NCBI RefSeq assembly: GCF_006345805.1
Contig: NC_043003.1
Span: 10,292,001-10,356,000 of the forward strand
DNA length: 64,000 bases
Direction: 5' to 3'
From: Octopus sinensis
Taxonomy: Eukaryota
Shown: positions 4,086 through 55,474 of the stretch, in pieces
Layout: each line of letters opens with the position of its first letter
Numbering within the stretch: position 1 is the first letter of the stretch
Translations under genes and position numbers: made by a program
Notes under the pieces: model-generated
Databases searched by the model: none
Told to the model about the DNA's origin: nothing
Seen by the model: the letters and a program-made list of their open reading frames with translations, nothing else

Positions 4086-4420
4086 CTGTTGTGTCTGGGG
4101 AGAGTCATTTTCTTTTTGTGCCTTATAATGTAACACACTCACCGGTAAAATTTCCACGCATTTCTTATTTTTATTTTCCTAAAATTTTCGTTGCGTCTTG
4201 CAACCTTTTCAATAGTCTTGACTCTCATATTGAAAAGGTTGCAAGACGCAACGAAAATTTTAGGAGAATAAAAATAAGAAAAAAGTGGAAATTTTACCGA
4301 TAGGTGTGTTACATTATAAGGCACAAAAAGAAAATGACTCTCCCCAGACACAACAGAATATGCTTCAACACACGAATTCAAATAAAGAATTTTGCAAACC
4401 AAATCCCAAAACGAAAATAT
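4086..4420. mobile_element. Penelope-like foldback relic with hammerhead-like motifs
   Basis: Inverted arms 4086-4214 and 4228-4356 with a 13-nt spacer; the right arm continues to about 4420. Confidence 0.7.
4179..4215 (-). ncRNA. Minimal hammerhead-like motif, U3:A8 variant (mirror copy about 4228-4262 on +)
   Basis: CUA-UUGAAAA-G-GUUGC-AAGAC-GCAAC-GAAA-AUU-U-UAG: 3-bp stem I, 5-bp stem II, palindromic AAUU stem III. Confidence 0.5.
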
Positions 4421-4747
4421 TTCTGCTATTTTCTGTTATAAAGGCGCGTGACATAGTGACTAAGGTTTTACACTGACGACAATGTGATCTCGGTTTCGAT
4501 TATTACCGGAGCAAAATACTTCTTTTCACGTTGGTCCAATCCACTCAACAGCAAATGAGTAACATCTCAACACACTTTTGTCCCGTCCAAGGCGGCTGAT
4601 CTGCTTTAGGTTGCTTATACGCAATGGAAACCGGGTAACCAAGTCCATGACTTTTTCGACTCAAGACAGGGGATTTACCTTACCCTTTTAATTTGCTGTT
4701 ATTTCCCTGATGTTTATATCTAAACTGTGAATGCGAATAGCTTATTG

Positions 4748-5035
4748 GTTTGGGTATGCGGTTCCCGATCGTAAGATCGTGTGTTTGATTCCTGGTGGCG
4801 CATTGTGATACTTTATTTCGTGTTATTCCAGTTCACTCAGCTGGCAAAAATGAGTTGTACCTGTAATTCAAAGAGGTCAGTCTTGTCACATTGTGTCATG
4901 CTGAATCTCCCTGAGAACTACATTAAGAATACCCGTGTCTGTGGAGTGTTCATCCACTTGCACGTAAATTTCACGAGCAGGCTGTTCCGTGCATCGGACC
5001 AAATAAAGCAAACGTCCTCGTAACTGACGCAATTC
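4748..5035 (+). mobile_element. SINE family B-related, degenerate
   Basis: 3' half matches 12350-12525 (gctgaatctccc-gagaactac...cacgagcaggctgttccg). Confidence 0.75.
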
Positions 5036-5321
5036 GTTTATATAAGTGTAATGTAATTTGAGACACTGTACCGTTTCGACCTTATTGTGTGTCTCCTAAG
5101 GAGCCTCCCAATCAAGGATTCTAACTGGAGTACTGTTTCTATAGAACTTAGCGATCAAAATATTTGCTGCTGTGTACTGATGACTACCAAATGAATAATA
5201 ATCTTTGAGATGCACGCTGAGAAGCAAGAAATATACAATAATGTGTCTTTTCATAAGCTGTAGGAATAAGGAAACTGCATGTAGTAACTGACACTTTTTG
5301 GGATACAGTGACGAGGGCTCC

Positions 5322-5582
5322 AATTGATGCGATTAACGGAACAGCCTGTTCGTGAAATTAACAAACAAGTGAACCCTTAATGTAGTTCTCAAGGACTTTC
5401 AGCGTGACGCAGAGTGTGACGAAGTTGGCCCTTTAAAATATAATCACTACTCAGTTTTGCCTGCAGAATGGACTGGAGTAATGTGAAATAAAGTGTCTTG
5501 CTGAAAGACACACGCATCGCCGGGAATTGAACACACGACCTAACGATCGTGAGCCGAATACCCTGACCACTAAGCCATGTAC
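5322..5582 (-). mobile_element. SINE family B-related, degenerate
   Basis: Reverse complement of a tRNA-like head and the family B 3' half. Confidence 0.75.
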
Positions 5583-7359
5583 CTAAGATCGTGCCAGACT
5601 CTCACAAAGTCGCACAATAGGTGTAAGTGTAACGAAAAGATTTCGGCGAGGAAATCGAGTTGCCATGTAAATCTCGTCCATCTGATAATTTCTCTCGGCA
5701 CCAGTTATGCGAGATTTGCAATAAATACCAAATCTGAAATACGTTACTTTCCTGATTGAAAAAAAAAGAAAAGCGCCTGTCAAAGTAGATGGATGTAGAA
5801 TATTGGGAAGGTCTACTCTGCTGACATTGAAATGAGAAACTATAAAATCAATGTTATTATCTAAGCCTTGAGTAAACTACACATTAAAGCGAGGATTATG
5901 GCCAAGAAAAGCTTTTGCCTTCAAACCTAATTTGCGAGTTTGTACCACCCCAAGCTTGCTCTCTATGTTTAAGCAAGACATTAAAACCACTCCAATCCAA
6001 ATTTATGGAATTGTTAATATGGTTAAGGAAGATTATTGAGAACATAAAATACCGGATTTTGCCTTTCATTACGATATAATCGATGTTGAAAACATCAATA
6101 ACACTTTGCGAATGATGTGATCAGTAATGTACCTTTGTAAAAATAGTTACATCGGGTGTAAATAAAATATTCGGCTAATCTACTTGACAAGAGACATACT
6201 TAGTGTCGAAGACAAACTGACCACAATGCTAAATTGACCACAGAGCAAGCTGATGATATTGTTAAGTTTAGTTATTGTAAAAAAATGTTTTTTAATTATT
6301 TCTCTTCCTGAAGATATTGTTCGATAAATTAACATCTGAATAGTTGCAAACAGTGAGTCGTATACAGTTTATCTTTATACCTATGGGTCCAAGGGATATT
6401 CTGGGTGACAATAAAATGGTGACTATACCAAATTCATTATACTATATTCAGTACTCAACCATGAATACTATCTATTTATCTCTTTGTCTATCTGTTCCTC
6501 TCTCTGCCTGTTATCTATCAATACGTATGTATATGTATATATATATTGTATGTATATACATACATATATACATGCACACTCACACACAGGCACACACATA
6601 TGCTTAGTTCTATACATACGTACCTACATGTGTGTTGAATGTACCATAATAGGTTTGGTGTAAATATCATATAGGTATATATGTAATATATATATATGTA
6701 AGTGTGTGCGTGTATGTAACATATATATATATATATATATATATATATATATATATATACACACACACACATTTATTTATATTTATATATATTATATATG
6801 TGCGAACCTTTTCTATTCTGTTTGTATATGTCTTTAACACGGCGTAATGACTAAGAAAAACAACCGGTTTTATCTATTATTCTCTTCAACACTAAGTCCG
6901 ATATTTATTCGGCTCTAGAAATAAATGTTAGTTAATGAAACCTCTATACAGCAATACAATTTTGACAACCACTCTCAATCTAAGCAGGAATGACTCAATT
7001 ACTGTTTGAAGTATTTACTTTCTTACTATAATCTTAATCTAATCTGACGATTTCTATAAAACAAGGCAGCTACAAAATGGCGGTATTTAATATTAGATGA
7101 AGTGTGATGCAACAGATGTTTAGTAATCGAAAGGAAACATGATAAAATGTACATGAAATTTTTCTATGATTTTTTTCGCATATTTTCTTGTTCAAGACAT
7201 TGGACCACGACCATTCTGGGGCACTGCCTTGTTTATTATCTTTCACTGCTAATTTACGGGCGCATAAACGTTGCCAAGTAGAAGTGGGGAAAATCACAAA
7301 GACACATACATATACACGTGTGTAGACAAAAATATGCCTATATATGCAAGTGTGGCATA

Positions 7360-7478
7360 TTGGGGAAGTGTCTTCTACTATAGCCTCGAGCCAATCAAAG
7401 CCTTGTGAGTGGATTTGGTAGACGGAAACCTGAAAGAAGCCCGTCGTATATATATATATTTATGTGTGTGTGTGTGTG
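7360..7478 (+). mobile_element. SINE family A fragment
   Basis: aagtgtcttctactatagcctc...gaaagaagcccgtcg motif. Confidence 0.8.
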
Positions 7479-53290: not shown

Positions 53291-53904
53291 CTTGGATTTA
53301 TGTACGTATATATGCACTTACATATACATACATACATACATACACACATACATGTGTGTGTGTGTATGGGTACATATTAATTGCTGTTAGGGACACCGTA
53401 GTTCATTTTGCCACCATAATGCCATAATATACTACCATTATGACACACAGAACGTGACCAGTGTTTCCCCTTGAAATACAATAAATGAACTGAAGCAACA
53501 GGAAACAAAGCGTCTTGCTTGCTCAAGACCACAACACACCGGTAGGTATCGAACGCACAACCTTACAATCGTCAGACGAATGCCCTAACCACTCACCCAA
53601 ACGCCTTCAGTATATGTGTGTATCACTCACTGTTTCTCTCTGTGTATATTTCAGTGCACGTGCATGTGTGAATGCGTGTGTGCTTATATGTGTATGTTTG
53701 TGTGTTTGCCTCTGGTGCCAAAAAGTACTCTCAGCAGAGCTGACGGAAATTTCCAATCATCTGAGCAATATCATCTGCATCGAAACAGCTACAACAAATC
53801 GATCCATTCCCACAGATGAGCTGTTATATAAGTAATCAATCATAAATTAAGCTAATTCCATCGCGGATAACTAATATCAATTTTATGTACAACTATGTAC
53901 ACTA

Positions 53905-54136
53905 TGAGGTATACTTGCCATCTCAGTATGGCTAACCACTAAGGGTGGGTGTTACTGTAGCTTGTAGCCCCAGAACATCGTCTCCAGCTGGCTTTAGGCA
54001 CACTTTCTGTGCTCTTATGGTTTTTGCACAGAAAGTGTGCCTAAAGCCAGCTGCAGATGATGTTCCCCTAGGGCTACAAGCTACAGTAACACCCACCCTT
54101 AGTGGTTAGCCATATTGAGATGGCAAGTATACCTCA
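53905..54136. mobile_element. Near-perfect foldback element
   Basis: Arms 53905-54012 and 54026-54136 with a 13-nt loop. Confidence 0.85.
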
Positions 54137-54223
54137 CATTGTCATGCAGTTACTATTTATACCTCGTTCAGAGATTTATTATGTACACTATGTAGATCAG
54201 AAATGAAATATATATATATATAT

Positions 54224-54677
54224 AGGCGCAGGAGTGGCTGTGTGGTAAGTAGCTTGCTAACCAACCACATGGTTCCGGGTTCAGTCCCAATGCGTGGCAT
54301 CTTGAGCAAGTGTCTTCTGCTATAGCCTCGGGCCGACCAATGCCTTGTGAGTGGATTTGGTAGACGGAAACTAAAAGAAGCCTGTCGTTATATATGTATA
54401 TATATATATATATATATATATATATATATGTGTGTGTGTGTGGTTGTGTGTGTGTGTGTATGTGTGTGTTTGTCCCCCTAGCATTGCTTGACAACCGATG
54501 CTGGTGTGTTTACGTCCCCGTAACTTAGCGGTTCGGCAAAAGAGACCGGATGAATAAGTACTGGGCTTACACAGAATAAGTTCCTGGGGTCGATTTGCTC
54601 GATAAAAGGCGGTGCTCAGCATGGCAGCAGTCAAACTGACTGAAACAAGTAAAAGAGAAAGAGAAAGAGAAAGAGAA
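54224..54677 (+). mobile_element. SINE family A, full length
   Basis: Head to tail match to the other copies. Confidence 0.93.
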
Positions 54678-55217
54678 TATATATATAATATATATACAAA
54701 TAGTAAATAAATGGCACAACAAAGTACCGATATTTACTGGAAATAGCGAACGTAAAAATACGACGCTAAAGTGTAGCTTCACCGCGTATGTATTAGTAAA
54801 AAACGTGTGTGCAACAAAATAGAGAAAAAAAAAACGTCTTACCTCCAGGGAGAACATCTGAAAGATGATGAAAACACCCGAAAATGGATAATGTGGTACC
54901 TGCAGGTTTCAGGTTTTGCAAGATATGTCTCTCACCCATATTTGCTTACCTCTTCAGCCAAACATATACCAAGGACGAAACTACGAGTTACCACTAATAT
55001 AACACACTCGACTGAAATACGGAACGCTAACAGACGAGAAACGGTTGAAGAAGTTAAAAATATCAGTAATGCAATACAAAGTATTGCCTTCCAGTAAAAA
55101 GTAGCCCGTGAGGGAAAAATACATATATATATTATATATATATATATATATATTGATAGAAATGTTAAGACAACAACAGAATAAAAGAGACTGCTATATT
55201 ATGTAAATAGAGGAATT

Positions 55218-55474
55218 TATCTGTAAATATATGTGACAATTATTCGGTAGCCATGATAAAACTCCGAGTTTCGGATTTCGGGACGGAAACATACGCCGCC
55301 ATCTCTTCAGTTATCCAGCCATCGAAAAAATGCTATGAAAATCTCATAGCATTTCATAGAATTTTTTCGAAGGCCGGATAACTGAAGAGAGGGCTGCGTG
55401 TGTTTCCGCCCCGACATCCGAAACTCGGAGTTTTATTATGGTTACCGATTAATTGCCGCATATATTCACAGATA
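55218..55474. mobile_element. Penelope-like foldback with a hammerhead-like motif in each arm
   Basis: Arms 55218-55342 and 55351-55474; GAUAA-CUGAAGA...GAAA-CUCGGAG-UU-UUAU(C/U) at 55255-55315 (-) and 55377-55437 (+); related fragment at 59928-59975. Confidence 0.75.

Follow-up and report, generated by a model that had tools for sequence, protein, structure and literature searches.

Hammerhead ribozymes of Penelope-like elements (PLEs), including a U3-A8 core and dual motifs ~100-700 bp apart on opposite strands, have been in print since 2014, and Fig. S4A of that work shows the 5' end carrying a second, opposite-strand motif. These hammerheads reportedly need a second sense copy and are weak even so (PMC4209133; PMC6765202). 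PLEs with an endonuclease (EN+ PLEs) are described as 5'-truncated, with a pseudo-long terminal repeat (pLTR), an adjoining inverted 5'-truncated copy, an optional tail and (TA)n targets (PMC8557442, PMC3846280). Our literature searches returned no dedicated study of octopus or cephalopod hammerheads or Penelope; a giant squid paper gives 235 hammerhead-1 loci. Here, we analyzed a 64,000-nucleotide stretch of Octopus sinensis (GCF_006345805.1, contig NC_043003.1, positions 10,292,001 to 10,356,000; hereafter the window), for which an original prediction from the letters alone had proposed hammerhead folds at six places in PLE repeats. The window very probably holds seven independent, mostly 5'-truncated ends of hammerhead-bearing retroelements, six from PLEs (families A-F) and one retrozyme-like (family G), whose inverted copies are predicted to silence the ribozyme by pairing with it.

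We ran the check put forward with the original prediction, a motif scan against dinucleotide-shuffled sequence, using a minimal type I hammerhead descriptor on both strands and a null of 60 block-wise dinucleotide shuffles of the window. The strict descriptor matched six times (shuffle mean 0.05, maximum 1) and the medium one eight times (shuffle mean 0.20); the loosest, which permits G-U pairs, matched six times compared to a mean of 1.25, a count reached in 1 of 60 shuffles. Complete motifs were located at 4212(-), 34406(-), 34877(-), 35532(+), 47153(+), 54957(-), 55310(-) and 55382(+), and the U6-core motif of family B at 15249(-). All six proposed places carry motifs, joined by a seventh at 54957-54897(-). 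CUGANGA (or U3-A8) and GAAA cores, a UH site and stems I and II are present in A, C, both copies of D, the plus-strand copy of E, both copies of F, and G; hammerheads A and D use the U3-A8 pair, family B alone departs from the invariant A6, and stem III is palindromic in a way that permits a dimer, with all five palindromes named in the original prediction present. An Rfam scan returned no hammerhead among the best 150 of 248 matches (E<=10), which were mostly microsatellite matches to miRNA models. The descriptor rejects degenerate CTGATGA sites at 7602(-), 22579(-) and 33833(-) and likewise 22381-22438(+), 59919-59975 and 973-1114. All are decayed remnants that look like hammerheads or are related to the families (old pieces resembling B, F and A), so the true load of PLE ends exceeds the motif count.

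Compared to the PLE hammerheads published in 2014, those found here share the short stem I, the extra nucleotide after A9 in several families, the palindromic 15.2-16.2 segment and U3-A8, as well as the pattern of many heterogeneous families per genome in mostly solo truncated copies. They differ in that the palindromes of many families are longer (6-10 nt) and their stem II has long inserts, and in that B has U6, whereas the motifs of Fig. S3 in that work are all A6; the descriptor used there probably required A6.

Family A (4078..4427, minus strand) is a 5'-truncated EN+ PLE end with an inverted copy, delimited by self-alignment, with arms at 4086-4214 and 4228-4356 and a 10-bp target-site duplication (TSD), TATTTCTGCT, in the flanks (4078-4087 and 4418-4427). 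Its hammerhead (4179..4215, minus strand, from the descriptor scan) has the U3-A8 core, stem III AAUU and H17=U; the mirror copy at ~4228-4263(+) is cut within stem I, leaving 2 bp of it. Family B (15132..15310, minus strand) is the solo 3' end of a Neptune-type PLE, lying between (TA)n tracts without an inversion, and its hammerhead (15219..15253, minus strand) has the core CUGUUGA, with U6 for A6 as the family state, and stem III ACGU. Family C (34267..34648, minus strand) is a PLE 3' end whose 79-bp inverted arms (34267-34345/34570-34648) stop short of the ribozyme (34355..34410, minus strand; CUGAUGA, stem III ACAGCUGU).

The Neptune-type stump of family D (34674..35704, minus strand), with (TA)n at both ends, comprises an inverted pLTR (35392-35704), a GIY-YIG remnant (35022-35411), a pLTR (34705-35018) and a ~31-bp tail; its inverted arms are 314 bp long. 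The hammerhead sense to the open reading frame (ORF; 34845..34884, minus strand) has a U3-A8 core and stem III ACCGGU, and that of the inverted copy (35525..35564, plus strand) is identical. Family E (43421..47383, minus strand) is a Penelope/Poseidon-type stump with a tail reaching to (TA)n, arms at 43421-44097 and 46600-47272 (~677 bp), a reverse transcriptase (RT) thumb at 46330-46602 and a broken endonuclease at ~45052-45260. Its sense hammerhead (43456..43549, minus strand) has a core interrupted by extra letters as assembled (CTGATTGATA), and the one at 47147..47237 on the plus strand is intact, with a long stem II insert and stem III ACGAUCGU. Family F (55155..55477, minus strand) is a PLE 3' end with an inverted copy in 126-bp arms (55215-55340/55352-55477); its hammerhead (55255..55315, minus strand) has CUGAAGA, stem III ACUCGGAGU and H17=U, with a second on the inverted copy (55378..55436, plus strand).

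Several descriptions in the original prediction agreed with this layout. Five sites were said to lie inside inverted repeats, and self-alignment recovered arms at five, namely A, C, D, E and F; most were said to adjoin (TA)n, which lies within 5 nt of five of the six sites, the exception being A, and within 30 nt of 10% of random positions. The claim that both strands carry a ribozyme was borne out at D and F, two of the six sites, and failed at A, B, C and E. That the families are unrelated holds at the DNA level only, where they share nothing past 19-nt chance matches, because their proteins are homologous (27-40% identity). No host exon was recognized among the long ORFs listed for the window or its flanks. 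Two other repeats lie nearby, an imperfect 920-bp (GAT)n tract with several open frames (36774-37692) and a broken LINE-type RT 3' fragment (42290-43325(-)) adjoining element E.

On sequence evidence, sites A-F are the 3' ends of EN+ PLEs. Copies of each family were sought across the 2.72-Gb genome, giving 674 (A), 2552 (B), 2001 (C), 1255 (D), 977 (E), 1834 (F) and 583 (G) first-look candidates, of which 40 per family were scored. Copy numbers of A-F in the genome range from hundreds to >12,000. ORFs were linked by tblastn between natural fragments, Pfam having missed the E, C, F and A-type fragments. Family D has the full arrangement of RT followed by a C-terminal GIY-YIG upstream of the pLTR, and A, B, C, E and F have fragments of it. 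Copies of D encode RT, a CX4CxxC linker and GIY-YIG, with coding sequence ending ~164 nt before the motif, and 114 proteins (~750 aa) carrying RT and/or GIY-YIG domains are related. Family B has the linker and GIY-YIG 0.8-1.3 kb upstream, in a region common to 6 of 35 pattern-picked loci, and longer copies of A have a decayed GIY-YIG with the linker upstream and an ORF start downstream. An endonuclease C-terminus lies 1.0-1.3 kb upstream of C in 2 of 30 loci and, in sense, 0.8-1.6 kb upstream of F in 3 of 30; in E, the RT thumb and a related broken endonuclease lie between the arms. The motif is ~50-105 nt from the element 3' end, within the pLTR, and hammerhead A is nearly invariant in 30 loci. 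The original prediction was right in assigning the motifs to minimal type I hammerheads with a palindromic stem III in PLE pLTRs.

The elements also show 5' truncation with a tandem or inverted copy, a pLTR, an optional tail, (TA)n targets, a TSD where visible and head-to-head palindromes, all as published for EN+ PLEs of the clades Neptune, Nematis and Penelope/Poseidon (PMC8557442, PMC3846280), and we found no difference in architecture. Clade labels here come from motifs rather than a tree, following the CX4CxxC linker as defined in PMC8557442, which was seen in A, B and D and not in the C, E and F fragments.

Longer copies elsewhere in the genome add some detail. Near-full D copies (L241:2960-4444(-), L242, L243) have a long N-terminal coding region before RT, with a 495-aa frame that starts within the pLTR and lacks a Pfam match; its frameshifts may be assembly indels. 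Family D is young, at 96-97% identity, and may have been active recently. The flanks hold a second U3-A8 family (cag UUGAAAA ... ACCGGU; 41.8-42.1 kb into L221-L230 and 32.0 kb into L231-L240), one copy of which, ~1.2 kb downstream of an RT ORF closely like that of D, has the same core variant and palindrome as D; the U3-A8 core and ACCGGU may have been inherited by lineage. One E-family copy (L246, G000:C3:31564500-31570300) has direct pLTRs 4.55 kb apart with an intact hammerhead in each, a canonical full-length tandem. PLE-like RT/GIY-YIG proteins filed under bivalve bacterial symbionts (P0014, P0024 and P0028, on 3-4 kb contigs of Thiodiazotropha and Solemya gill symbiont) are likely host contamination.

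The inverted copies recur genome-wide. In D and E, a minus-strand ORF runs into a 3' pLTR that carries the sense hammerhead, with an inverted copy forming the upstream arm. An upstream inverted copy was found within ~1.5 kb in 9/30 (A), 1/30 (B), 9/30 (C), 8/30 (D), 12/30 (E), 12/30 (F) and 2/20 (G) loci. These counts are lower bounds in which the window copies are included, and more D pairs occur at spacings of 2-5.6 kb. The layout matches the statement in the original prediction that PLEs often insert with an inverted pLTR. Inversion junctions differ from copy to copy. Identity between arms (A 91-95%, C 85%, D 97%, E 96-97%, F 86-88%) did not exceed the identity to the best-matching dispersed copies (A 96-98%, C 85-90%, D 96-97%, E 97-98%, F 88-92%), as neutral decay predicts. 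Judging from the literature, the endonuclease of the parent element would nick (TA)n, and the inverted second copies are likely by-products of reverse transcription at insertion.

In a head-to-head pair, the antisense arm precedes the sense ribozyme in transcripts of either direction. Forcing the hammerhead fold costs 48 kcal/mol in the A foldback, 65 in D, 86-95 in F and 139 in an E-family foldback, compared to 0-10 kcal/mol in isolation, and the probability of the stems is ~0 in the A, D and F foldbacks. The antisense arm is therefore predicted by folding models to bury the ribozyme rather than activate it. In natural A and B tandems, a forced double hammerhead costs 15-17 kcal/mol. Tandems supply a second sense copy and inversions do not, so an inverted pair is left without a dimer partner. 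In the parent element, published behavior suggests that the ribozyme would act when two sense copies in tandem pLTRs form a dimer, which excises unit-length RNA from longer transcripts. The stumps in the window are probably inactive and, if a host transcript reads through them, would be, as any inverted repeat is, ordinary double-stranded RNA (dsRNA) that ADAR or small-RNA pathways can use as a substrate.

Family G, absent from the original prediction, is present as one copy of a 430-bp unit (54677..55118, minus strand) with a hammerhead at 54894-54960 (minus strand) whose stem III is the 10-nt palindrome ACCUGCAGGU; it shares one (TA)n tract with family F. The unit has a 430-bp period, occurs head-to-tail in 8 of 20 loci with up to five units, each with one type I hammerhead, and its copies, most of them single, are 93-94% identical to the window copy. 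From its DNA, G is a retrozyme-like tandem unit of a young family. It resembles non-LTR retrozymes (PMC7229834; bioRxiv 10.64898/2026.07.22.740005) in its short non-coding tandem units with one type I hammerhead each, a likeness at the DNA level, and tandems also occur in families A (331 bp) and B (~305 bp). The difference is that most G copies are single, and that in A and B the tandem units are multimeric pLTRs belonging to coding elements.

We weighed three other explanations. Chance folds in AT-rich repeats, or palindromes created by assembly, might be suspected from the many indels in assembly ORFs and from the lack of a hammerhead among the listed Rfam matches. This explanation is scarcely credible, as the strict count was reached in 0 of 60 shuffles, the U3-A8 covariation and the free positions N7 and N17 follow hammerhead rules, arm sequences diverge by 3-15% with duplication limited to element ends, A has its TSD, and contigs of one sequencing run of unrecorded kind match the C spacer at 0-1 differences. 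The original prediction had further proposed that read-through from either side meets a sense ribozyme and also forms dsRNA, which could link cleavage with A-to-I editing and small-RNA production, and that family-specific stem III palindromes could serve as dimer codes. The foldbacks are real long duplexes, and a palindrome pairs far more strongly with its homologue than with a heterologous one (for example, -11.1 compared to at least -3.7 kcal/mol). Octopus is hyper-edited and rich in near-perfect dsRNA, a lizard Penelope is heavily edited (PMC5625713), and 8 of 30 local inverted pairs are linked to PLEs or hammerheads. Coupling is nevertheless very unlikely: both motifs are intact at only two of six sites, the antisense arm, transcribed first, is predicted to bury the core at a penalty of 48-95 kcal/mol, the inversion lacks a dimer partner, and the arms decay like neutral copies. 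Editing of core adenosines is also expected to destroy catalysis. The palindromes are not family codes, as four of them recur in unrelated clusters among 27 motif clusters (ACCGGU in 3, ACGU in 3, ACGAUCGU in 2 and ACAGCUGU in 2).

The third explanation, that the window is a true PLE trap (an insertion hotspot or a locus like a PIWI-interacting RNA cluster) whose foldbacks silence many families, depends on density. We sampled eighty 10-kb stretches from fixed places on the large contigs (799,800 bases) and found 16 matches (15 independent), or 18 (17 independent) with U6 allowed, compared to 0-1 after shuffling; this corresponds to 1.2-1.4 independent motifs per 64 kb and ~54,000-61,000 motifs genome-wide. 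The window has 6-7 independent insertions, ~5x the genome mean (Poisson P 0.0015-0.0005 for one window), its 200-kb flanks have 8 independent matches with U6, and PLEs give antisense small RNAs in rotifers (PMC3846280). Against a trap, chance alone should give about 22-64 windows this dense in 2.7 Gb, counts per 10 kb show no over-dispersion (variance/mean 0.8-0.9), and the 3 independent canonical matches in the flanks are at the background level. A trap is thus improbable, and the "field" of the original prediction stands as a local excess with little extension into the flanks. The density is mostly a chance tail of the genome-wide load, and the cluster is ordinary for this genome apart from the abundant U6 family B. 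Some observations weigh against reading the window as truncated ends with buried ribozymes. The ~5x density, with flanks ~2x the mean once U6 cores are counted, leaves some local preference possible. The ORF links for C and F come from 2/30 and 3/30 loci, and G has no sense RT or endonuclease ORF in 20 loci (+-1.5 kb). The tandem double hammerhead is not the predicted minimum either (P(pal1:pal2) ~0), so the modeled contrast between foldback and tandem is one of degree, and the equilibrium models take no account of unwinding by ADAR or of transcription that begins within an arm.

Family B is the most abundant of the seven. Exact genome-wide matches to a 31-letter pattern with position 7 free numbered 11,935 for U6, 115 for A6 and 279 for C or G at position 6, a count for A6 that matches background mutation. 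All four letters occur at position 7 (13 T, 9 A, 5 C and 3 G in the first 30 loci), and position 17 is A or U, with 144 matches for C or G under a slightly different pattern. Across 24 copies that were recovered without using B as a query, a second allele at >=15% occurred in 0 of 24 constrained non-CpG motif columns versus 32 of 122 columns outside, and in two of six free columns, 7 and 17 (Fisher P ~0.002 for the column contrast, with copies that are related and T-rich flanks that align less well). The column pattern speaks to the fold, which was likely constrained in the master lineages while they carried U6. It is possible, though we think it doubtful, that the U6 hammerhead was under purifying selection through a subfamily split in which only positions 7 and 17 changed, either as an active natural U6 variant or as a ribozyme-shaped RNA with a non-catalytic role in retrotransposition. 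Among natural core variants, U3-A8 is active, a natural A6C variant has kobs <0.1/min, and A6U is absent from the main text (Perreault 2011, PMC3088659); family B is like the variants of that study in changing position 6, as A and D are in U3-A8, and differs in that U6 is the master state of >11,900 copies. We found no report of U6, A6U or CUGUNGA in a literature search that left out Luense 2017 on PLE hammerhead variants, where U6 may be described.

Among 30 near-perfect local inverted pairs in the 800 kb sampled, 8 were linked to PLEs or hammerheads (one weakly), 11 were high-copy repeats and 11 had no class. The largest identified class (11/30) is SINE-like repeats of very high copy number, found at 33996-34232 in the window and in many other places, with a summed contig depth of 10^5-10^7. 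When contigs of four sequencing runs were compared to 33850-35690, no listed piece spanned the stretch or the D inversion junction or showed transcription of this locus, these contigs being without ends, strand or editing information; no A>G/T>C excess relative to the fourth run appeared over the same interval, where contigs cannot show editing. One 2983-nt contig, from a run guessed to be RNA, passes through a longer D-family copy and its hammerhead.

Of the near-perfect local inverted repeats here, about a quarter (8 of 30) may come from PLE inversions, a share that bears on the source of dsRNA for editing. PLE hammerheads, opposite-strand pairs and inverted pLTRs are already in print, and this genome holds tens of thousands of such motifs; the U6 family is the lead worth an assay. 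If U6 is active, CUGANGA descriptors would miss such hammerheads by tens of thousands. Very successful, with a conserved fold and a core change expected to lower activity, family B would offer a natural test of whether PLEs need cleavage.

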